A DNA stretch of 64,000 nucleotides from an uncultured Acidobacteriota bacterium (GTDB lineage Bacteria > Acidobacteriota > Thermoanaerobaculia > Multivoradales > UBA5704), in NCBI GenBank assembly GCA_963700145.1, contig OY969474.1, positions 1,600,001 to 1,664,000 on the forward strand, read 5' to 3'. This document shows, piece after piece, positions 18,976-28,495 of this stretch (positions are counted from its first letter, which is position 1; each line of letters begins with the position of its first letter). The translations under genes and the position numbers were made by a program. The notes beneath the pieces were generated by a model that was not told the origin of the DNA, did no database searches, and saw only the letters and a list, made by a program, of their open reading frames with translations.

Positions 18976-20100
18976 ATGGAACGCTCGACCGCCCTCCGCA
19001 CCCCCCGCCCCGCCGAGGAGATGGCCTTCCAGCCGCTCCTGGACTCCTTCCGCGGGCGCCTGGACCGCGAGCTGGCCGCCTTTCTGGCGCGCAAGCGCGA
19101 GGCGGCCGGAGCCGCCGAGGCGCTGGAGCTGGTTGACGGGGTGGCGCGCCTGGTGGCGCAGGGGGGCAAGCGCCTCCGCCCGGCCCTGGTGCTGGCCGCC
19201 TACCGGGCCTGCGGCGGCCGGCGGGAGGAGGCGGCGCTGCCGCTCGCGCTCTCGACCGAGCTGCTCCACACCTACCTCCTGATCCACGACGACATCATGG
19301 ACCACTCCGAGGTGCGCCGCGGCGAGCCGGCGGCCCACGTCCGCTTCGCCGACAGCCACGCCGCGCGCGGCTTCCGCGGCGACGCGGGCGACTTCGGCCG
19401 CTCGGCGGCGATCCTGGTCGGCGACCTCGCCCACACCTGGGCGGTGGAGCTGTTCGGCGCGGCTGCCGACCTGGTGCCGGACCCCGAACGCCGGCTTGCC
19501 CTGCGCGGCGCCTTCTCGGCGATGGCCGAGGAAGTGATCGCCGGGCAGTACCTGGAGATCCAAGTCGGGCTGCGGCCACGCTCCGAGGGAACGATCGAGG
19601 ACGAGCTGCTCCGCGTCCTCCGCCTCAAGTCGGGCCGCTACACCGCCGAGCGGCCGATCCAGCTGGGCGCCCTGCTGGCCGGCGCTCCGTCCGGCCTGCT
19701 CGATCTCTTGTCCCGCTACGGCGCCGCCGTCGGCGAGGCCTTCCAGCTCCAGGACGACCTCCTGGGCACGTTCGGCGACGCGGAAACGGTCGGCAAGCCG
19801 GTCGGCGCCGACCTGCGCGAAGGCAAGTACACGTTCCTCGTCCACCACGCGCTCGAGGCATCCTCCCCCGCCCAGCTCCGTCTGCTCAGCGACGCCCTCG
19901 GCGACCACGACCTCACCGCTGACCGGCTCGCCGCCGTCCGCCGCGCCCTCGAGGAGACCGGCGCCCGCGCCCGCGTCGAGGCCATGGTCGAGGAGCGCCT
20001 GCAGGTCGCCGCCGCCGCCCTCGAAGGCCTGCCGCTGGCGCCCGAGGGGGGCGCCTTCCTCGCCGGCCTCCTCGACTGGCTCTGGGAGCGAGAGCAGTGA
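18976..20100 (+). CDS. Polyprenyl diphosphate synthase (FPP/GGPP synthase)
   Basis: GGKRLRP, FARM HDDIMD..RRG, GQ..E, KS, SARM QLQDDLLG, GKPVGADLREGK. Confidence 0.95.
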   Translation: MERSTALRTPRPAEEMAFQPLLDSFRGRLDRELAAFLARKREAAGAAEALELVDGVARLVAQGGKRLRPALVLAAYRACGGRREEAALPLALSTELLHTYLLIHDDIMDHSEVRRGEPAAHVRFADSHAARGFRGDAGDFGRSAAILVGDLAHTWAVELFGAAADLVPDPERRLALRGAFSAMAEEVIAGQYLEIQVGLRPRSEGTIEDELLRVLRLKSGRYTAERPIQLGALLAGAPSGLLDLLSRYGAAVGEAFQLQDDLLGTFGDAETVGKPVGADLREGKYTFLVHHALEASSPAQLRLLSDALGDHDLTADRLAAVRRALEETGARARVEAMVEERLQVAAAALEGLPLAPEGGAFLAGLLDWLWEREQ

Positions 20101-21131
20101 AGCTCGCCCCCTGGGCCGCCGATCTCGGCCGCGACCGCAAGGCCGAGCACATCCGGCTCGCCCTCGAAGGCCGCATGCAGGGCACCGGCGGCGCCTTCGA
20201 CCGCTACCGCTTCGAGCACCAGGCCCTCCCCGAGCTCGACTTCGACGAGATCGACCTCTCGACCACCTTCCTCGGCAAGCCCCTGGCCGCCCCGCTCCTC
20301 GTCTCCTGCATGACCGGCGGCACCGAGATCGCGGCGCGGATCAACCGCCACCTGGCGCTCGGGGCCGAGCGGGTGGGGCTGGCGCTTGGCGTCGGCTCGC
20401 AGCGCAAAGCGTTGGAGGATCGGACGAAAGCTGATACCTTCCGCGTCCGCGACGCCGCGCCGTCCGTCCCCCTCCTGGCCAACCTGGGCGCCGTCCAGCT
20501 CAACTATGGGGTGGGGGCGGCCGAGTGCGAGGCGGCGGTGGCGATGATCGGGGCCGACGCCCTGGCCTTCCACCTCAACCCGCTGCAGGAGGCCATCCAG
20601 CCGGAGGGGCAGCGCGACTTCCGGGGGCTGGTCGCCAAGCTCGGCGAGGTGGCGCGGGGGCTCTCGGTGCCGGCGATCGCCAAGGAGATCGGCAGCGGCC
20701 TCTCGGCGCGCGCCGCACGGGCGCTCCACGACGAGGGGTTCCGGATCTTCGACACCGCCGGCAGCGGCGGCACGAGCTGGGCGCGGATCGAGGGGGAGCG
20801 GGCGGGGGACCCGGACCTGGGCGAGGTCTTCGCCGACTGGGGCATCCCGACGCCGGAGTCGATCCGGGCGCTGGCCGAGCTGCCGGGCATCACGTTGATC
20901 GGCAGCGGCGGCGTGCGCAACGGCGTCGACGCGGCCAAGGCGATCGCGCTGGGCGCGGATCTCGTGGGGCTGGCCTACCCGTTCCTGGAGGCCGCCAGCG
21001 AGTCGGCCGAGCGGGTCGTCGAGCGGGCCGAGCGGATCGTGCGCGAGCTCAAGATCGCCATGTTCTGCCTCGGCGCCAAGGACCTGGCGGCGCTCAAGGC
21101 CGCGACGCTGCACGGAAGGGCCGACCAATGA
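20097..21131 (+). CDS. fni: Type 2 isopentenyl-diphosphate delta-isomerase (FMN)
   Basis: RKAEHI, MTGG, GSQR, HLNPLQE..QPEG, KEIG, GGTSW, SGGVR. Confidence 0.95.
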   Translation: MKLAPWAADLGRDRKAEHIRLALEGRMQGTGGAFDRYRFEHQALPELDFDEIDLSTTFLGKPLAAPLLVSCMTGGTEIAARINRHLALGAERVGLALGVGSQRKALEDRTKADTFRVRDAAPSVPLLANLGAVQLNYGVGAAECEAAVAMIGADALAFHLNPLQEAIQPEGQRDFRGLVAKLGEVARGLSVPAIAKEIGSGLSARAARALHDEGFRIFDTAGSGGTSWARIEGERAGDPDLGEVFADWGIPTPESIRALAELPGITLIGSGGVRNGVDAAKAIALGADLVGLAYPFLEAASESAERVVERAERIVRELKIAMFCLGAKDLAALKAATLHGRADQ

Positions 21132-22423
21132 GCCAGATCAAGCCCGTCGATCCCGTCCCCCCCGCGAGCCACTCGCGCGAAGAGCTGGTGCGTTCGCTGG
21201 TCTCCGGCGAGCGCCGCTTCCACGAGCTGCCGCGCGACCTCCCCGCCGGCGAGGCCGCCGAGGTCCGTCGCCAGGCCCTCGAGGAGATGACCCAGGCCGA
21301 GCTCAAGCACGTCGGCCACCACTCCCTCGACGTCTGCCGGGCCTCCTACCGCCACTGCGAGAACTTCATCGGCGTGGCGCAGGTACCGATGGGGGTGGTG
21401 GGGCCGCTGCGGGTGCGCGGCGAGCGGCTCGACGGCGAGGTCTACGTGCCGCTGGCGACGACCGAGGCGGCGCTCATCGCCTCGACCAACCGCGGGTGCG
21501 CCGCGCTGCGCGCCGCCGGCGGCGTCGTGGTGCGGGTCGAGGACGTGGGGATGACCCGCGCGCCGGTCTTCCGCACCTCCGGCGTCATCCAGACGCAGCA
21601 GTTCGTGCGCTGGATCCGCGAGCACGACGCCGAGCTGCGGAAGGTGGCCGAGGGGACCAGCCGCTACTTGAAGCTCCTCGACGTCCGCCCCTTCGCCTTC
21701 GGCACCACGGTCTTCCTCCGCTTCCGCTTCGACGCCGGCGACGCCATGGGCATGAACATGGCGACGATCGCCTGCGACCGCATGGTCAGCGAGCTGATCG
21801 AGCCGCAGACGGGCGTCCCCTGCATCGCCCTGTCGGGCAACTACTGCACCGACAAGAAGCCGGCCGGCATCAACTTCCAGGAGGGGCGCGGCAAGCGGAT
21901 CTACGCCGAGATCCTGCTCGACGGCGAAGTGCTGCACAGCTACCTCAAGACCGATTCGCGCTCGCTCGTCGAGGCGCAGTACCGCAAGAACCTGCTGGGA
22001 TCGGTGGCGGCCGGGTCGCTCGGCTTCAACGCCCACTTCGCCAACGTGCTGGCGGCCTTCTTCATCGCCACCGGGCAGGACGCGGCGCACGTCGTCGAAG
22101 GGTCGCTCGGGGTCACCTGCATCGAGCCGCGCGGCCCCGAGGGGGTCTTCGCCTCGGTCTTCCTCCCCGACGTGCCGCTCGGCGCCATCGGCGGCGGCAC
22201 CGCGCTCGACACCCAGCGCGAGGCGCTGGCGGTGATGGGGGTCTCCCCCGACCCGCAGCGGCGCGGCGACGCGGTGATCCGCTTGGCCGAGATCTGCGGC
22301 GCCGTGGTGCTCGCCGGCGAGATCTCGCTGATGGCCGCCTTCACCTCGCAGGACCTGGCGCGCGCCCACGAGCGCCTGGGCCGCGGCGCCGCCGCGCCCG
22401 ACCTGCCGCTGCTGCCGACCTAG
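21128..22423 (+). CDS. hmgA: Class I (NADPH) HMG-CoA reductase
   Basis: CENFIG, PLATTE, MTRAP, GDAMGMNM, LSGNYCTDKK, GQD, GGGT, C-terminal His; ATG overlaps fni stop. Confidence 0.95.
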   Translation: MSQIKPVDPVPPASHSREELVRSLVSGERRFHELPRDLPAGEAAEVRRQALEEMTQAELKHVGHHSLDVCRASYRHCENFIGVAQVPMGVVGPLRVRGERLDGEVYVPLATTEAALIASTNRGCAALRAAGGVVVRVEDVGMTRAPVFRTSGVIQTQQFVRWIREHDAELRKVAEGTSRYLKLLDVRPFAFGTTVFLRFRFDAGDAMGMNMATIACDRMVSELIEPQTGVPCIALSGNYCTDKKPAGINFQEGRGKRIYAEILLDGEVLHSYLKTDSRSLVEAQYRKNLLGSVAAGSLGFNAHFANVLAAFFIATGQDAAHVVEGSLGVTCIEPRGPEGVFASVFLPDVPLGAIGGGTALDTQREALAVMGVSPDPQRRGDAVIRLAEICGAVVLAGEISLMAAFTSQDLARAHERLGRGAAAPDLPLLPT

Positions 22424-22439
22424 CCCGGGAGGGCCCCGC

Positions 22440-23519
22440 TTGCCGGCGGTCGCGGTCTCCACACCTGGCAAGCTCATCCTCATCGGCGAGCACGCCGCCG
22501 TCTACGGTCGCCCCGCGCTCGTCGCGGCCGTGGACCGCCGCCTGACCGCCCGCCTGACGCCGCGTCTCGCCGGCGGGGTCGAGCTCGATCTTCCCCAGGT
22601 CGGCTACCGCGAAGAGCTCTCCTGGAGCGACCTCCTCGCCTACGCGCGCGAGGTCCGCGAGCGCTGGGAGCGCTACGCCGCCGAGCCCGGCGCCGCCGCC
22701 TTCCAGGCGGTACGCGGCGGCGACCCGGCGCACGTCGTCAAGGTCGCGCTCGGCGAGGCGGCCGAGGCGCTGGGCGAGGCCGGCGGCCCGCCGCTCCACC
22801 TACGCATCGACTCCCAGCTCCCGATCGGCTCCGGCTTCGGCAGCTCGGCGGCCACGGCGGTGGCGGTGGTGGCGGGGTACCTCGCCTTCCGCGGCGCCGA
22901 CGCCGGCCCGGAGGCCGTCCGCCGGCTGGCGCTGGAGGTCGAGCGCCGCCAGCACGGCATGCCCTCGGGGGTGGACGGCGCCACGGTCTTCGAGGGCGGC
23001 GTCCTCTGGGCGCGCCGCACGGCGGACGGCGGCCTCGAGAGCGAGCCGGTCGAGGCGCGCTCGCCGCTCCTCGCGGCGCTCCGCGTCTACGACACCGGCG
23101 CCCCTCCCGAGCCCACCGGGGCGGTCGTGGCGGCGGTGCGCGACCGCTGGCAGGGCGACCCGGCAGGCCTGGACCGCCTCCTCGACGGGATCGAGGCGGC
23201 GACCCGCGCCCTCCGCGCCGAGCTGGAGCGGGAGCGCGCGGACCCGGCGGCCGCCGTCCCCCTCCTGCGCGAGGCCGAGGCCTGCCTGGAGGAGCTGGGG
23301 GTGGTGCCGCCGGCGGTGCGCGAGCTGGCGCGGCGGGTCGAGGCCGAGGGGGGGGCGGCCAAGGTCTCGGGGGCGGGCTCCCTCGCCGGTCCGGCCGCCG
23401 GCTGCCTCCTCGTCTACCATCCCGACCCGGGCCGGATCCCGACCTGGCCCTTTCTTCGCAGGCTCTCTCATCTTCCGGTCGCCTTGGGGGCGGCCGGCTG
23501 CCGCCGGGAGGCGGCCTGA
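22440..23519 (+). CDS. mvk: Mevalonate kinase
   Basis: PGKLILIGEHAAVYG, PIGSGFGSSAA, HG.PSGVD, KVSGAG. Confidence 0.9.
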   Translation: MPAVAVSTPGKLILIGEHAAVYGRPALVAAVDRRLTARLTPRLAGGVELDLPQVGYREELSWSDLLAYAREVRERWERYAAEPGAAAFQAVRGGDPAHVVKVALGEAAEALGEAGGPPLHLRIDSQLPIGSGFGSSAATAVAVVAGYLAFRGADAGPEAVRRLALEVERRQHGMPSGVDGATVFEGGVLWARRTADGGLESEPVEARSPLLAALRVYDTGAPPEPTGAVVAAVRDRWQGDPAGLDRLLDGIEAATRALRAELERERADPAAAVPLLREAEACLEELGVVPPAVRELARRVEAEGGAAKVSGAGSLAGPAAGCLLVYHPDPGRIPTWPFLRRLSHLPVALGAAGCRREAA

Positions 23520-24524
23520 ATGCTCAAGGCCACGATCGCCGCGCCCGCCAACATCGCCTTCATCAAGTACTGGGGCGCGAAGGACTTAGACCACGCGATC
23601 CCGAACAACCCGTCGATCTCGATGACGCTGTCGCGCTGCGTCTCGAACTGCACCGTCGAGCCGCTCGGCGGCGACGCCCGGGAGGACGAGGTCTGGCTGG
23701 CGCAGAGCGGCGGCGGCTTCGCCACCCCGGCCCACGGCTTCGGCGAGAAGGTGCGGGCGCAGCTCGACCGGGTGCGCGAGTGGTCGGGCTGGGAGGGGCG
23801 CTTCCGGGTGGCCACGCGCACCGAGTTCCCGAGCGCCGCCGGGCTCGCCTCGTCGGCGTCGGGCTTCGCGGCCTTGACGCTCGCCAGCGTCGCCGCCCTC
23901 GACCGCATGGCGACGCCGCAGGAGCTCTCGGCGCTGGCCCGCCGCAGCGGCTCGGGGTCGGCGGCGCGCTCCTGCTTCGGCGGCTACGTCGAGTGGCCGG
24001 CGGGCGGGCCCGACGACGACCCCTGGGCCGGCGCCCTGGCGAGCGCCGACGACTGGGACCTGCGCGACGTGATCGCGGTGGTGGAGATCGGGCCGAAGAC
24101 GATCCCGTCGCTGGAGGGGCACCGGCGGGCACCGACCAGCCCCTACTACAAGCGGCGGCTGGAGCTGCTGCCGGAGCGGCTGGAGCGCACGCGGCTGGCG
24201 ATCAAGGAGCGGGACCTTTCGCTGCTCGGGCCGGCGCTGGAGGAGGAGGCGATCGATCTGCACTTGATCGCGATGTCGTCGCGGCCGCCGGTCTTTTACT
24301 GGAGCTCGGGGACGGTGGAGGTGCTGCGGTTGATCCGGGAGATGCGGCAGGAGGGGGTGGAGGCGTGGGCGACGATGGACGCGGGCGCGAACGTGCACGT
24401 GATCTGTACGCCGGAGGCGGAGGATGACGTGGCGGAGCGGTTGGAGGAGCTGCCGGCGGTGGGGTTCGTGATCCGCGACTGCGTGGGGTCTGGGCCTAGT
24501 CGGGAGATTGAGCATCTGTTCTGA
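23520..24524 (+). CDS. mvaD: Mevalonate (di)phosphate decarboxylase, probably phosphomevalonate decarboxylase
   Basis: ANIAFIKYWGAK, PSISMTL, FPSAAGLASSASG, RRSGSGSAARS, TMDAGANV. Confidence 0.9.
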   Translation: MLKATIAAPANIAFIKYWGAKDLDHAIPNNPSISMTLSRCVSNCTVEPLGGDAREDEVWLAQSGGGFATPAHGFGEKVRAQLDRVREWSGWEGRFRVATRTEFPSAAGLASSASGFAALTLASVAALDRMATPQELSALARRSGSGSAARSCFGGYVEWPAGGPDDDPWAGALASADDWDLRDVIAVVEIGPKTIPSLEGHRRAPTSPYYKRRLELLPERLERTRLAIKERDLSLLGPALEEEAIDLHLIAMSSRPPVFYWSSGTVEVLRLIREMRQEGVEAWATMDAGANVHVICTPEAEDDVAERLEELPAVGFVIRDCVGSGPSREIEHLF

Positions 24525-24544
24525 GGGGGGATCGCGCGATCACC

Positions 24545-24703
24545 GCCCGCCGGGTGCGCTCCCCTACGGCACCGGCGCGCGAGTTGAGGACTTCGGATCT
24601 GAGTCGCGCGCCTCCGGTTCGCTGCGCGCCGGATCGGTGGCGGACTGCGGTGGGGTTGCCGGCGCTGGCTCACAGGTGCCTCCGGGGAGCGCACCCGGCG
24701 GGC
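24545..24703 (+). repeat. ~160-bp long-stem intergenic element, copy A
   Basis: Perfect 20-bp terminal IR GCCCGCCGGGTGCGCTCCCC / GGGGAGCGCACCCGGCGGGC; core shared with 39699-39863 and 44485-44650. Confidence 0.75.
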
Positions 24704-24726
24704 TACCGTCGTGGTGAACCCTTGCA

Positions 24727-24762
24727 TGTCATCCTGAGCGAAGCGAAGGATCTGGGCGGGGG
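24727..24762 (+). repeat. CGTC-type REP-like repeat
   Basis: TGTCATCCTGAGCGAAGCGAAGGATCTGGGCGGGGG; further copies at 26521 and 39630. Confidence 0.8.
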
Positions 24763-24767
24763 AAGCT

Positions 24768-25553
24768 GTGGCTGACATCACCCTATTGAAGCTCGGCGGT
24801 AGCCTGATCACGGAGAAGGAGCGGGCTCGGACTGCGCGAGGGGAGGTAATCCGGCGGCTGGCGGGGGAGATCGTCGCGGCCGGGGCGGGGGGCTTGGTGC
24901 TCGGGCATGGGAGTGGGTCGTTCGGGCATGTGGCGGCGGCGCGGGCGGGCTTGGGGAGCGGGCCGGTGGCGCGGGAAAACCTGGACGGCGTGGCGGACAC
25001 GCAAGCGGAGGCGGCGGAGCTGCATCGGATGGTCGTCGTGGCGTTGCGGGAAGCGGGAGCGCGACCGTTTTCGTTCGTGCCGGGGAGCTTCTTGGTGGGA
25101 AGGAGCGGGCATGAGCACGGAGTGTTGCCGCCTGCGCTGCCGGTGGCGCTGCGCTCGGGCTTCCTCCCCGTGGTCTACGGCGACGTGGTTCTGGACACCG
25201 AGTGGGGCGCCGCGATCGTCTCGACGGAGGTCGTCTTCATCTTCCTCGCCCGCGAGCTGTTGGCCGCCGGCTTCACTGTCCGCCGCGCGATCTGGCTCGG
25301 CGAAACGGCCGGCCTCCTCGACTCCGCCGGTCGTACCATCCCTGAAATTCATCCCGACGATTGGGACACCGCCGTCAGGGCGCTCAGGTCCCCACGAGGC
25401 ACCGACGTCACCGGCGGCATGGGCCTCCGTCTCGTCGCCGCCGCCGCCCTGTCGGATGACGGCATCCCTTCGCTCCTCGCCGACGGCACCGTCCCCGGGC
25501 TCCTGGAGCGCGCCCTTCGCGGCGAGATGGTGCCGGGCACGCTGATAGGCTGA
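24768..25553 (+). CDS. ipk: Isopentenyl phosphate kinase
   Basis: Amino-acid-kinase fold: LKLGGSLITEK, HGSGSFGH (IPK His), PVVYGDV, DVTGGM; inside the mevalonate cluster. Confidence 0.9.
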   Translation: MADITLLKLGGSLITEKERARTARGEVIRRLAGEIVAAGAGGLVLGHGSGSFGHVAAARAGLGSGPVARENLDGVADTQAEAAELHRMVVVALREAGARPFSFVPGSFLVGRSGHEHGVLPPALPVALRSGFLPVVYGDVVLDTEWGAAIVSTEVVFIFLARELLAAGFTVRRAIWLGETAGLLDSAGRTIPEIHPDDWDTAVRALRSPRGTDVTGGMGLRLVAAAALSDDGIPSLLADGTVPGLLERALRGEMVPGTLIG

Positions 25554-25561
25554 CTGCGGCG

Positions 25562-26512
25562 ATGGCCGACCTCGACGCGCACCTGCTCAAGACGAGCCGC
25601 ACGTTTGCGCTCTGCATCCCGCGGCTGGGGCAGCCGACGCGGCGGGAGGTGACGCTCGCCTATCTCCTGCTGCGGGTCGCCGACACGTTCGAGGACGCGG
25701 CCGCCTGGCCGCGGGCGCGGCGGATCGAGGCGCTGGAGCGGTTCGGCGCGCTCCTCGCGCGGCGCGCGCCCGAGGAGACGGCGGCGCAGGCTGCGGTCTG
25801 GGCGGAGGAGGTCCCCTGCGCCTGGCTGGCGTACCGGGAGCTGCTGGCCGACCTGCCCGAGGTGCTCGACGCCTTCTTCGGCCTGGCGCCGCCGGCGGTG
25901 GAGCTCATCCGCGCCCACATGCTACGCACGATCCGCGGCATGGCGGGGTACGTGGCGCGCACCGACGGCGCCGGCGAGCTGCGGCTGGCCGACCTCGCCG
26001 ACCTGCGCGGCTACTGCTACGTGGTGGCGGGGATCGTCGGCGAGCTGCTGACCGAGCTCTACCTGCTCGAGCGGCCGGAGCTCGCGGCGGTGGCGCCGCG
26101 GCTGCGCGAGCGGGCGCCGTTCTTCGGCGAGGGGCTGCAGCTCGTCAACATCCTCAAGGACTCGGCGTCCGACGCGGTCGAGGGGCGCTGCTATCTGCCG
26201 GCGGCGGTGGACCGCGCCGAGGCGCTGGCGCTGGCGCGCGAGGACCTGCGAGCGGCGGCCGAGTACGTGCTGGCGCTCCAGGCCGCCGGCGCCGAGCGCG
26301 GCCTGGTGGCCTTCAACGCCCTGCCGGCCGAGCTGGCGCTCGCCACGCTCGACCGCGTCGAGGCCGCCGGCCCCGGCGCCAAGCTCACCCGCCGCGAGGT
26401 CTTCGACATCGTCGACCGCGTCAACCAGGCCCTCGAGCGCGATGCCCCGGCCGTCTCCCCCGCCGTCTGGAACCCGGCGCAAGCCGCAACCGCCCCTCGC
26501 GCCGCGCACTAA
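25562..26512 (+). CDS. Squalene/phytoene synthase family head-to-head prenyltransferase
   Basis: SRTFAL, YLLLRVADTFED, YCYVVAGIVG, GLQLVNILKD...D..EGRCYLP. Confidence 0.92.
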   Translation: MADLDAHLLKTSRTFALCIPRLGQPTRREVTLAYLLLRVADTFEDAAAWPRARRIEALERFGALLARRAPEETAAQAAVWAEEVPCAWLAYRELLADLPEVLDAFFGLAPPAVELIRAHMLRTIRGMAGYVARTDGAGELRLADLADLRGYCYVVAGIVGELLTELYLLERPELAAVAPRLRERAPFFGEGLQLVNILKDSASDAVEGRCYLPAAVDRAEALALAREDLRAAAEYVLALQAAGAERGLVAFNALPAELALATLDRVEAAGPGAKLTRREVFDIVDRVNQALERDAPAVSPAVWNPAQAATAPRAAH

Positions 26513-26520
26513 CCTTAGCC

Positions 26521-26556
26521 CGTCATCCCGAGCGCAGCGAGGGATCTGGGCGGGGG
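26521..26556 (+). repeat. CGTC-type REP-like repeat
   Basis: CGTCATCCCGAGCGCAGCGAGGGATCTGGGCGGGGG. Confidence 0.75.
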
Positions 26557-26598
26557 CGCCGTCATGCCCGTCACTATAATCCGCCGCCGGAGGTGCCG

Positions 26599-28495
26599 AT
26601 GGCCCGCGTGCTCGATCTACCGCTCGTCGCTCCCCTGCTCTTCTCCTTCGCCGCCCTCCTCTGCGCCTGCGCCGGCGCGCCCGCGCCGGCGCCCTCCGGC
26701 TCCTCCACGCCGGCCGCCGCGCCCGCCGTCCAGGACCCTCACTCCTACGCCAAGCCCCAGGAGGTCGCCGTCGAGCACCTCGGGCTCGACCTCACGGTCG
26801 ACTTCCCGCGCAAGCAGCTCGCCGGGCGCGCCAGCCTCCGCATTCGCAACCGCACCGGCGCCACCCGGCTCCACCTCGACACCCGCGACCTCGACGTCCG
26901 CCGCATCCTCCTCGACGGCGGCACCGAGGCGCGCTTCACCCTCGGCGACCCCAAGCCCTTCCTCGGCCGCGAGCTGACCGTCGAGATCGCGCCCGACACG
27001 CGCGTCGTCCACATCGACTACGCCACCAGCGCCGACGCGGCCGCCCTGCAGTGGCTGGAGCCGCGGCAGACCTCGGGCGAGCACCCGTTCCTCTTCACCC
27101 AGTCGCAGGCGATCCTCGCCCGCACCTGGGTGCCGCTCCAGGACACGCCGAGCGTGCGCATGACCTACGAGGCGACCGTGCGCGTGCCGCCCGAGCTGAT
27201 GGCGGTGATGAGCGCCGAGAACCCGACGGCGAAGTCCGCCGACGGCGTCTACCGCTTCCGCATGCCGCAGGCCATCCCCTCCTACCTCCTGGCGCTCGCC
27301 GTCGGCGACCTCGCCTTCCGGCCGCTCGGCGACCGCGCCGGCGTCTACGCCGAGCCGGCGGTCGTCGAGCGCGCCGCCTGGGAGCTGGCCGACACCCCGA
27401 AGATGATCGCCGCCGCCGAGAAGCTCTACGGCCCCTACCGCTGGGGACGCTACGACGTGCTGGTGCTGCCGCCGAGCTTCCCCTTCGGCGGCATGGAGAA
27501 CCCGCGCCTCACCTTCGCCACGCCGACGATCCTGGCCGGCGACCGGTCGCTCGTGTCCCTCGTGGCGCACGAGCTGGCCCACTCATGGTCGGGGAACCTG
27601 GTGACCAACGCCACCTGGAACGACTTCTGGCTCAACGAGGGGTTCACCGTCTACTTCGAGAACCGCATCATGGAAGCGCTCTACGGCCGCTCGTACTCCG
27701 AGATGCTCGCGGCCCTCGGGCGTGGCGACCTCCTCGAGACGATCGAGGAGCTGGGCGCGGACAGCCCGGACACGCGGCTCAAGCTCGAACTCACCGGCCG
27801 CGACCCGGACGACGGGGTCACCGACGTCGCCTACGAGAAGGGGTATTTCCTGCTGCGGCGGATCGAGGAGGTCGTAGGGCGGAAGCCCTTCGACAAGTTC
27901 GTCAGCTCCTACTTCCAGCGCCACGCCTTCCGCTCGATGGACACCGAGACCTTCCTCGCCCTCCTCGACCGCGAGCTCCTCGCCAAGCACCCGGAGCTAA
28001 AGGCCGAGGTACGCCAGTGGGTCTACGAGCCGGGCCTCCCGGCGACCGCGCCGCAGCCCAAGTCCGACGCCTTCGCCAAGGTCGAGGCGCAAGCGCAGGC
28101 GTTCGCGGCCGGCACCCCGGCGGCCGACGCTCGCGACGCAGGGCTGGTCCACCCACGAGTGGCTCCACTTCCTCCGCACCCTCCCCGACCCGCTTCCCGC
28201 CGAGCGCATGGCCGACCTCGACCAGACCTTCAAGCTCTCCGACAGCGGCAACTCCGAGGTCCTCGCCGCCTGGCTGGAGAAAGTCATCGCCAGCAGCTAC
28301 GCCCCCGCCTACCCCGCCCTCGAGCGCTTCCTCACCGGCATGGGCCGGCGGAAGTTCCTCCAGCCGCTCTACACAGCGTTGGCGAAGACCCCCGCCGGCG
28401 CCGAACTGGCGCTCCATATCTACGAGAAGGCGAGGCCGGGGTACCACACGGTGTCGCGGCAGACGATTGACAAGATTCTGGACTGGCGGGGGTGA
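26599..28495 (+). CDS. M1 aminopeptidase / leukotriene A4 hydrolase-like, with a frameshift near 28128
   Basis: Lipoprotein-like signal, GGMENP, HELAHSW...WLNEG; the C-terminal domain (WSTHEWLHFL...GRRKFL.PLY) continues in the +1 frame to 28495. Confidence 0.88.

Follow-up and report, generated by a model that had tools for sequence, protein, structure and literature searches.

A clustered mevalonate pathway with a predicted mevalonate-5-phosphate decarboxylase in an uncultured Acidobacteriota bacterium whose genome yielded no HMG-CoA synthase

The gene cluster and its conservation

The window analysed here is a stretch of 64,000 nucleotides from the genome of an uncultured member of the Thermoanaerobaculia (Acidobacteriota; hereafter, the host). 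Between positions 18976 and 26512 it contains seven ORFs, 7/7 on the forward strand, together with two REP-like repeats:

18976..20100, + strand: short-chain trans-prenyl diphosphate synthase, probably of the FPP/GGPP type (PF00348)
20097..21131, + strand: type 2 isopentenyl-diphosphate isomerase (IDI-2; TIGR02151, 374 bits, cut-off 281)
21128..22423, + strand: class I HMG-CoA reductase (HMGR; TIGR00533, 447.7 bits, cut-off 441.8)
22440..23519, + strand: mevalonate kinase (MVK), TTG start (TIGR00549, 148 bits, just below the cut-off of 163)
23520..24524, + strand: predicted mevalonate-5-phosphate decarboxylase (MPD; nearest PDB match 6N0X; Ala20, His201, Asp287)
24728..24753, no strand: REP-like palindromic repeat in the gap between decarboxylase and IPK (82 genome-wide copies at two mismatches or fewer)
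24768..25553, + strand: isopentenyl phosphate kinase (IPK), GTG start (NF040647, 132.9 bits, cut-off 120)
25562..26512, + strand: squalene synthase-type head-to-head synthase, FdfT-like (PF00494; best model TIGR01559)
26522..26547, no strand: second REP-like repeat, after the last gene (66 copies at two mismatches or fewer)

Successive genes are separated by -4, -4, 16, 0, 243 and 8 nt and are probably co-transcribed, the 243-nt gap being the one that contains the genome-wide palindromic repeat. Three independent public runs supply DNA contigs that span most of the cluster in pieces, with a spike in read depth at this repeat. RNA from the cluster amounted to a few short contigs, too few to show expression, and the scan for promoters and terminators gave 0 promoters and three terminator-like sites against 1.5 expected. 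All seven co-oriented genes proposed in the earlier note, with their family assignments, were borne out over this span, and neither phosphomevalonate kinase (PMK), HMG-CoA synthase (HMGS) nor thiolase was found within the cluster, as that note had stated.

Some of these assignments rest on more than a model score. The best NCBIfam matches of the prenyl synthase (NF041169 and NF042416) are both below cut-off, and its type is read from a Tyr at position -5 before the first Asp-rich motif, which we take to be the rule that governs chain length. For the MVK, TIGR00549 is the best model and the PMK model TIGR01220 reaches only 34.5 bits. Three HMGR paralogs elsewhere in the genome (310-335 bits with TIGR00533) were rejected as the HMGR of the pathway, being below cut-off and sited in lipid or secondary-metabolite loci.

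In a search of genome contigs, all seven genes occurred in the same order in 24 of the 80 best loci, and the IDI2-HMGR-MVK-decarboxylase-IPK series in 43/80; many of the remaining loci were either broken by contig ends or distant CPR/Chloroflexota matches. Such recurrence of the order makes a chance arrangement untenable. The cluster is common to most of an order of Thermoanaerobaculia and, since the pathway is moreover already published, the suggestion that it might be an undescribed system has to be abandoned.

The lower pathway

The host genome is 95.4% complete and its assembly is possibly not closed. Within it, dxr, ispE, ispF, ispG and ispH of the MEP pathway were all not found, three PMK queries gave no tblastn match and two further PMK queries from CPR matched only the MVK. 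At the family level the decarboxylase was detected in 76 of 77 genomes and ispG in 0/77 (at most 27 candidates scored per genome). The identity of the IPK is clear, with all seven of its PDB matches being IPK structures (one entry is titled generically as a kinase) and the signature GHGSGSFGH aligned, including the signature histidine. Three clade genomes with no IPK at this locus carry one at another site, above cut-off. Because neither PMK nor the MEP pathway was found, the cluster is very likely the only source of IPP in the cell, by the known MPD+IPK route. This is the route that had been proposed from the window, and the PMK gene that would have made IPK a salvage enzyme was not seen in the genome, where the decarboxylase itself proved nearest to an Anaerolinea MPD.

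The best PDB match of the decarboxylase is this Anaerolinea enzyme (6N0X, E 1.8e-65; the best diphosphomevalonate decarboxylase, DMD, reaches 3.7e-45). With an AlphaFold model (pLDDT 92) the Anaerolinea chains also outranked every DMD, at about 40% identity and a TM-score of 0.90-0.92. The protein has the catalytic Asp287, and the lysine that binds the diphosphate in DMD (Lys21 in S. epidermidis) is replaced by Ala20. MPD engineering was reportedly the subject of work by Thomas in 2019; a N20K/H194M mutant entry, judged by PDB sequences and titles, flags the two positions that correspond to Ala20 and His201 here. His201 is present in all 53 clade loci in which IPK is adjacent, none of which has Lys or Arg at position 20; the absence of Lys/Arg there holds for all 58 clade loci. 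In CPR-type loci position 20 is Lys/Arg in 12/12, with two kinases upstream in 10/12, and four reference DMDs have Lys and Met at the two positions. His201 is also found in 5/12 CPR-type enzymes, one IPK-linked enzyme from Patescibacteria retains the Lys, and a DMD-type Arg at 198 persists in 16/53 clade members. The passages of Zhu 2024 (PMC11052028) on a Chloroflexota enzyme describe the same loss of Lys and retention of His, and dual specificity.

Model scores and phylogeny were less straightforward. With the DMD model TIGR01240, which may not tell MPD from DMD, the protein scores 210 bits and exceeds the cut-off of 171; with NF040704, the model for haloarchaeal PMD, its 142 bits fall short of the required 475. 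Its Ala26 corresponds to Ile27 of S. epidermidis, a site at which MPDs have Arg or Thr (Dellas 2013, PMC3857490, Table 4); this feature is not strict, since in six Chloroflexota loci the residue is Arg in 2/6 and Asn in 4/6. A quick tree of 53 rows (the host enzyme, 48 of the 80 loci and four reference DMDs) placed it in a clade of its own (27/53 rows, SH-aLRT 100); this tree, whose basal forks are open and which includes neither haloarchaeal nor Anaerolinea references, yields no donor and no direction of transfer. We consider the enzyme most probably specific for MVA-5-P. Databases label it diphosphomevalonate decarboxylase, in our prediction a mislabelling of the key enzyme of the cluster. 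As for its description as haloarchaea-type, this stands for the reaction chemistry only, because the enzyme fails the haloarchaeal model and the Chloroflexota enzymes are the closest among the references tested.

The last gene and the end product

The best model for the last gene is the squalene synthase TIGR01559, at 77 bits and far below the cut-off of 287. In the PDB, squalene synthases occupy its first 10 places, ahead of CrtM and phytoene synthase; among named proteins, FdfT and myxobacterial enzymes are its closest relatives. Aligned to solved enzymes it has the two Asp-rich motifs, the SRxF flap and the YCxxVAGxVG region, presumably the functional motifs of squalene synthases, and SRTF, ADTFED, YCYVVAGIVG and LQLVNILKD are kept in 41 aligned rows. 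Two family members have a paralog (55% identical) within their shc cassette, and this, too, reaches only 87 bits with TIGR01559.

The genomic context in relatives, where shc, HpnH and HpnG are present, points in the same direction. In 8 of the 16 loci examined (chosen for shc or the cluster) the shc cassette immediately precedes the cluster, and in relatives the same cluster sits behind shc-hpnH-hpnA-hpnG. It resembles the rear portion of a hopanoid supercluster still present in the relatives, with the order shc-hpnH-hpnA-hpnG-IDS-IDI2-HMGR-MVK-MPD-IPK-SQS. In the host genome no shc, hpnG, hpnI or hpnK was found, and hpnH gave only weak radical-SAM matches. The end product had been left open in the earlier note; it is now less so, as the squalene synthase-like sequence and the shc/hpnH neighbours of its orthologs make C30 much more likely than C40. 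The product of the last gene is quite probably squalene and, as the host genome has no cyclase, squalene is also the likely end product.

The supply of HMG-CoA

HMGS was already seen to be missing from the cluster. The more unusual point, which could not be seen from the window, is that neither type of HMGS was found in the 95.4% complete genome by Pfam, two local profiles or tblastn. The best match of a broadened HMGS profile, weak at E 1e-13, was a FabH-like gene and was judged to be FabH. No broken HMGS remnant was found, either at the syntenic site or genome-wide. Across the family some HMGS was detected in 29 of 77 genomes and not found in 48/77; some members have an AIB-like operon with an archaeal-type HMGS. 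HMG-CoA lyase was above cut-off in 0/77 and the beta chain of methylcrotonyl-CoA carboxylase (MCC) was present in 75/77. As a control, the lyase was above cut-off in 83 of 151 genomes of the class, and it is scarce in two unrelated families too (0/3 and 3/20). The sole HMGL-like gene of the host was discarded as a lyase: it resembles LeuA and homocitrate synthases and adjoins isopropylmalate dehydrogenase.

Genes that could serve a leucine route are present: aminotransferase, 2-oxoacid dehydrogenase, acyl-CoA dehydrogenases, MCC beta chain, biotin carboxylase with carrier, and hydratase. The MCC beta chain has methylcrotonyl-CoA carboxylase as its best PDB match and is assigned as such, whereas the candidates for isovaleryl-CoA dehydrogenase, BCKDH and hydratase are all below curated cut-offs. 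In 61 close metagenome loci the MCC beta gene adjoins AtuA in 31 and the hydratase in 38. The genes ilvC, ilvD and leuD were not found in the host genome while ilvE is present, which suggests that leucine is taken up by the cell. Since no HMGS gene was found, we lean towards leucine catabolism as the likely source of HMG-CoA.

Proposed route and alternative readings

Taken together, it is likely that the cluster is the only isoprenoid route of the cell, from HMG-CoA to squalene, with HMG-CoA probably coming from leucine breakdown. Leucine degradation, from aminotransferase to hydratase, would deliver HMG-CoA in place of the HMGS entry, HMGR would convert it into mevalonate and MVK this into mevalonate-5-phosphate. 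The predicted MPD would produce isopentenyl phosphate, from which IPK and IDI-2 would make IPP and DMAPP. The prenyl synthase would then form FPP, and the head-to-head synthase squalene, which in the host would stay as an uncyclised membrane hydrocarbon. IPP would also feed the quinone and undecaprenyl synthases.

A classical route, in which the decarboxylase uses MVA-5-PP made by an orphan GHMP kinase or a bifunctional MVK and IPK serves in salvage only, would agree with the outcome of TIGR01240 and NF040704, with the PMK-linked CPR enzymes among the nearest tree neighbours and with a Serratia genome that carries the same decarboxylase clade and neither IPK nor PMK. The orphan (genome positions 4335122-4336099), third of the only three GHMP-domain genes in the host and also present in the genome G215, scores about equally with the MVK and HddA models. 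However, it is unlinked, its nearest relatives are heptose-phosphate kinases and its best structures heptose/sugar kinases. With the DMD lysine missing throughout the clade (58/58) and every Acidobacteriota case checked retaining an IPK, whether at the locus or elsewhere, we find the classical route quite improbable. Much the same applies to a last enzyme that yields phytoene (C40) or an unreduced C30 carotenoid precursor. PF00494 spans both activities, the prenyltransferase may make GGPP and the genome has three CrtI-superfamily oxidoreductases. With 139-152 bits all three stay below the crtI cut-off of 238, and each is found in an unrelated locus; squalene synthases outrank CrtM and CrtB, and the orthologs adjoin shc. 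Such a product is thus hard to credit.

Two further readings concern the entry point. An enzyme so far unrecognised could build HMG-CoA from acetyl units, with the lower route unchanged; the foremost candidate is the AtuA pair (2639782-2641804 in the host genome), as a reversible HMG-CoA/acetoacetyl-CoA lyase or synthase. In relatives AtuA shows about 80% conservation and accompanies MCC-beta and the hydratase, at the place expected of a lyase; HMG-CoA lyase occurs in 0/80 AtuA loci, and the genome has thiolases. No solved relative was found, and the Atlas search gave only its Pfam family. For AtuA of Pseudomonas an acetate-lyase role has reportedly been proposed. The function is putative, though, the context suggests leucine catabolism rather than synthesis, and the reverse reaction would presumably require the pull of HMGR; we consider this synthesis unlikely, and AtuA may itself drain HMG-CoA. 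Alternatively, an HMGS may be absent from the assembly only, or external mevalonate or 3-hydroxy-3-methylglutarate may be scavenged. The incomplete genome, a bacterial-type HMGS in one of three same-genus genomes (G272) and the HMGS of other family members speak for this. Against it, no HMGS was found in G215 or G223, each a single contig at 100% completeness, nor in G064 with its three contigs, although all of them have the full cluster, and the yhaM-like/DUF420-like interval that holds HMGS in G112 is occupied by another gene in the host. As HMGR is retained, uptake of mevalonate would by itself be insufficient to account for the cluster. This reading seems to us rather improbable, and leucine breakdown remains the preferred supply.

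Comparison with known systems and implications

The closest parallel is in Chloroflexota (MPD and IPK of Roseiflexus castenholzii, Dellas 2013, PMC3857490; MPD of Anaerolinea thermophila, 6N0X/6N0Y/6N0Z), which likewise combine MVK, an MDD-like decarboxylase without the DMD lysine and IPK, without PMK; the MPD histidine is kept in the host enzyme. The latter, however, belongs to its own clade with Ala instead of Arg/Thr at position 26, and the host genes are clustered, with a squalene synthase attached and HMGS not found in the genome, whereas Chloroflexi MVA genes are unclustered (Hoshino 2018). For Haloferax volcanii PMD/IPK (VanNice 2014, as relayed in parts of PMC9385802 and PMC6107057) the predicted order of reactions is the same, class I HMGR and type 2 IDI are shared, and the host squalene synthase has homologs in haloarchaea (about 36% identity); the difference lies in the PMD, whose model the host enzyme fails. 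Acidobacterium Mor1 of subdivision 22 (Sinninghe Damste 2017), by its description in sections of PMC5462960, also has no MEP genes, most mevalonate genes, a squalene synthase homolog, shc and hpnH. It is a single genome of another subdivision with a cyclase, and those sections do not mention IPK, MPD or a missing HMGS. Myxobacteria, Bradymonadales and Oligoflexia (Hoshino and Gaucher 2021, PMC8237579) are aerobes that swapped MEP for MVA and have a single-step squalene synthase, and it is among myxobacterial enzymes that the host synthase has its nearest named relatives; their MVA route is treated there as homologous to the eukaryotic one, and the main text is without IPK, MPD or Acidobacteria. 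Finally, HMG-CoA joins leucine catabolism and isoprenoids via methylglutaconyl-CoA hydratase in a Calditenuis archaeon (proposed, PMC12979851) and at the AIB branch point of Myxococcus (PMC5389471). In the portions of these papers that bear on it, Myxococcus has HMGS and its loss in Calditenuis is unreported; in the host the link would be obligatory.

In bacteria the MPD+IPK route is confined to Chloroflexota as far as the main texts of PMC6107057, PMC11052028 and PMC9254496 go; supplementary trees of the first two, outside the literature search, may include acidobacterial sequences. The literature searched (subscription journals mostly outside its scope) gave no description of the operon in Thermoanaerobaculia or of an HMGS-less bacterial MVA pathway. 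We are thus dealing with a known pathway with an unusual entry point, in a lineage absent from that literature, and not with a new kind of chemistry.

The route now extends to most of an Acidobacteriota order and, likely by transfer, to some Gemmatimonadota. An obligate MVA user without HMGS predicts that isoprenoid carbon comes from leucine, or from an unknown HMG-CoA-making enzyme, for which AtuA is the candidate. More tentatively, this family of uncultured soil Acidobacteriota may have discarded MEP and, mostly, HMGS and HMG-CoA lyase, drawing all its isoprenoids (quinones, undecaprenol, squalene) from scavenged leucine via a new MPD clade, with the AtuA pair controlling or supplying HMG-CoA. 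In the relatives the cluster feeds hopanoid synthesis, which bears on the reading of hopanoid carbon-isotope signals because the MVA and MEP routes label carbon isotopes differently. Being compact and coupled in translation, the module would also lend itself directly to terpene engineering.

Content and conservation of the cluster

The seven co-oriented genes reported in the earlier note are borne out by their coordinates, by Pfam and NCBIfam assignments and by the conserved order in the loci of relatives:

18976-26512, + strand: polyprenyl synthase, type 2 IDI (IDI2), class I HMGR, mevalonate kinase (MVK), MDD-family decarboxylase, IPK and squalene/phytoene synthase; intergenic gaps of -4, -4, 16, 0, 243 and 8 nt

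The source genome (G000) is a single contig of 5.46 Mb, 95.4% complete, in which the window spans C1:1600001-1664000, and the closest named homologs and loci belong to the Thermoanaerobaculia, Acidobacteriota. Among the best 80 of at least 569 confirmed loci from a search of genome contigs, 24 contained all seven genes in the same order and 43 the ordered run IDI2-HMGR-MVK-decarboxylase-IPK. The cluster is real and conserved. In the sample used for class tallies (151 genomes, one of them, G004, unpublished and carrying none of the conclusions), IPK passed the curated cut-off in 32. Within the window's order 35/37 genomes gave matches above 100 bits, against 0/114 genomes from other orders (top score 57 bits), so the cluster is a trait of the order.

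Downstream of the cluster, an M1 aminopeptidase gene (window 26593-28495) is broken into two overlapping frames, probably by a sequencing indel. G000 has two copies of a block of ~8 kb (purH-like gene, polyprenyl synthase and adjacent genes; C1:7000-15200 and 1369000-1377200) that are inverted and differ slightly; they reflect either a true duplication or faulty assembly at the start of the contig.

The decarboxylase and the type of pathway

We have compared the decarboxylase with mevalonate-5-phosphate (MPD) and diphosphomevalonate (DMD) decarboxylases. Among solved structures it is closest to the Anaerolinea thermophila enzyme 6N0X (E 1.8e-65; best DMD, 3.7e-45), and its AlphaFold model (pLDDT 92) matched every listed Anaerolinea "mevalonate 5-phosphate decarboxylase" chain ahead of all DMDs. 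PDB 6N0Z is the N20K/H194M mutant of the Anaerolinea enzyme; the matching window residues are Ala20 and His201. This lysine is given as the DMD feature in a passage of Dellas 2013 (PMC3857490), and the Chloroflexota enzyme, as described in a section of Zhu 2024 (PMC11052028), lacks the lysine, keeps the histidine and has dual activity. Position 20 is Lys in 4/4 reference DMDs and Lys or Arg in 12/12 CPR-type enzymes, ten of them with two kinases visible upstream; within the clade of the window protein it is non-basic in all 53 members with an adjacent IPK and in 5/5 without. Against an MPD, the protein scores over the cut-off of the DMD model and under that of the haloarchaeal PMD model, has Ala where the same passage of Dellas 2013 lists Arg/Thr, shares the MPD histidine with 5/12 CPR-type enzymes, and the lysine is retained in one IPK-linked Patescibacteria enzyme.

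In a quick tree of 53 rows the window decarboxylase fell in a well-supported clade (27 rows, with an unresolved base) that holds, besides Acidobacteriota, Gemmatimonadota, Schekmanbacteria, a Salinibacteraceae bin and a Serratia. In this form of the phylogenetic check proposed earlier, the clade is separate from the Streptomyces and Firmicutes DMDs and adjoins CPR as well as Chloroflexota enzymes. Decarboxylase and IPK pairs also occur outside the clade, in uncultured bins that carry a Gammaproteobacteria label and in one Patescibacteria bin (loci L052, L060, L075 and L083). A cultured enterobacterium, a Serratia quinivorans strain, carries HMG-CoA synthase (HMGS), HMGR, MVK and a decarboxylase of the window's clade (L058:6087-11002); neither IPK nor phosphomevalonate kinase (PMK) was found in its genome, and the route there may stop at isopentenyl phosphate or isoprenol.

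As already remarked for the cluster, no PMK was found in G000 as a whole: a PF00288 search gave MVK, the decarboxylase and, as its third and last gene, an unlinked kinase closest to heptose-phosphate kinases, and PMK queries added no gene in this 95.4% complete genome. The suggested search for the MEP route ended likewise, with dxr, ispE, ispF, ispG and ispH not found in G000 and weak partial matches only for dxs and ispD; the genome does carry prenyl synthases, the undecaprenyl type among them. Among the 77 genomes of the window's family, ispG was found in none and the decarboxylase in 76. From its gene inventory, G000 very likely has the cluster as its only IPP route, without an alternative in the genome. 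In the sister family f5 (Ca. Multivorans and relatives) ispG is kept beside IPK and HMGS in 19/23 genomes, and both pathways may coexist. Three Acidobacteriota without IPK at the locus carry it elsewhere in the genome; the eight other GHMP kinases scanned from these and from the family genome G215, all those listed but one of G318 and one weak G215 match, were of GalK, ThrB, IspE or orphan type.

Set against the Chloroflexota/haloarchaeal MPD+IPK pathway, the cluster agrees in the sequence tests apart from a single residue and an HMGS gene, and so ranks as a variant of that known pathway. We consider it highly probable that the cluster would work in this way, and the proposal of an undescribed system was not sustained. 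The description as haloarchaea-type stands as regards the MPD+IPK tests, mostly in agreement, but not for the decarboxylase, which fails the haloarchaeal PMD model. Chloroflexi are the only bacterial phylum with this route in a passage of Hoshino and Gaucher 2018 (PMC6107057), Aoki 2022 (PMC9254496) names only halophilic archaea and Chloroflexi in the corresponding passage, and Acidobacteria are not mentioned in the main texts of Zhu 2024 and of a 2026 review on isoprenoid pathways in bacteria (PMC13001223). Relative to the published main texts searched, the host range is new. Sections of two other papers describe Mor1, a bin from the Acidobacteria that holds mevalonate genes, squalene synthase and squalene-hopene cyclase (shc), the route being unnamed (Sinninghe Damste 2017, PMC5462960), and MVA with SQS in myxobacteria and relatives (Hoshino and Gaucher 2021, PMC8237579). 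PMC9385802 served as background.

The source of HMG-CoA

The most surprising and testable point is a family without HMGS in most members, without HMG-CoA lyase and without MEP. No HMGS was detected in G000 by Pfam, by profiles from relatives' bacterial- and archaeal-type enzymes or by tblastn. It is present in 29/77 family genomes (25 archaeal-type, 4 bacterial-type) and was not found in 48, among them G215 and G223, both single-contig, 100% complete and with the full cluster. HMG-CoA lyase exceeded the cut-off in 0/77 (top score 118, cut-off 246) and in 83/151 class genomes, being rare in a few other families too; the methylcrotonyl-CoA carboxylase beta chain (MCC-beta) is found in 75/77. In the five loci read (L108-L112, in G227, G211, G231, G243 and G189), the archaeal-type HMGS belongs to an operon similar to the AIB operon of Myxococcus (described in a section of PMC5389471), with an archaeal HMGS module. 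All five have genes for TetR, an archaeal-type HMGS, an archaeal-type thiolase and DUF35; in three of them CoA-transferase-like A/B genes and a zinc dehydrogenase gene follow.

As the simplest reading we infer, with some preference, that leucine is the HMG-CoA source. It would pass through isovaleryl-CoA, methylcrotonyl-CoA and methylglutaconyl-CoA to HMG-CoA, by way of a putative dehydrogenase and hydratase, and HMGR would pull this HMG-CoA into the cluster. Genes for IlvE, for a 2-oxoacid dehydrogenase complex and for several acyl-CoA dehydrogenases are present in G000. Searches of this genome for ilvC, ilvD and leuD found none of the three. Leucine channelling into a PMD/IPK route is proposed for an archaeon in a section of PMC12979851. 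Of 61 close metagenome loci, 31 link MCC-beta with an AtuA pair and 38 with the hydratase, and an HMG-CoA lyase was seen in 0/80 AtuA loci. The AtuA pair is a candidate non-homologous HMG-CoA lyase, and may break HMG-CoA down or even make it. In G000 a split AtuA pair and hydratase are located at C1:2638979-2641804 (L117).

Further HMGR genes were seen in G000. Two paralogs at C1:4968000-4985300 (L001) lie in a type II fatty-acid/polyketide-like locus with KAS, chain-length-factor-like, two ACP, flavin halogenase-like, carotenoid-oxygenase-like, desaturase-like, acyltransferase and ABC1 kinase genes; they keep the catalytic motifs, score below the HMGR cut-off and may be acyl-thioester reductases. 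A fourth HMGR (C1:5434602-5436140, L002) has an additional N-terminal domain (PF25653) and lies close to genes for an ABC1 kinase and an acyltransferase and to a patatin-like gene.

The last gene and the end product

For the last protein, squalene synthases ranked above CrtM and CrtB, and squalene synthase motifs are retained; its closest named relatives (10 of at least 150 matches looked up) are FdfT-annotated and myxobacterial. Immediately upstream of the cluster, 8/16 loci of relatives (picked because of shc or of the cluster) have a shc-hpnH-(hpnA)-hpnG cassette; in unselected loci (the best 80 of at least 569) the flank contains shc in 8/80. The genome check for shc and crtI returned no squalene cyclase in G000 and three CrtI-superfamily proteins, all far below the crtI cut-off; a strong cyclase match was found in only 3/23 other family genomes. 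Together these observations argue for squalene as the likely product in G000, and for hopanoids in relatives. The end product, previously left open, is thus narrowed towards squalene by the synthase ranking and the relatives' shc. Two family members possess a 55%-identical synthase paralog within a separate shc cassette.
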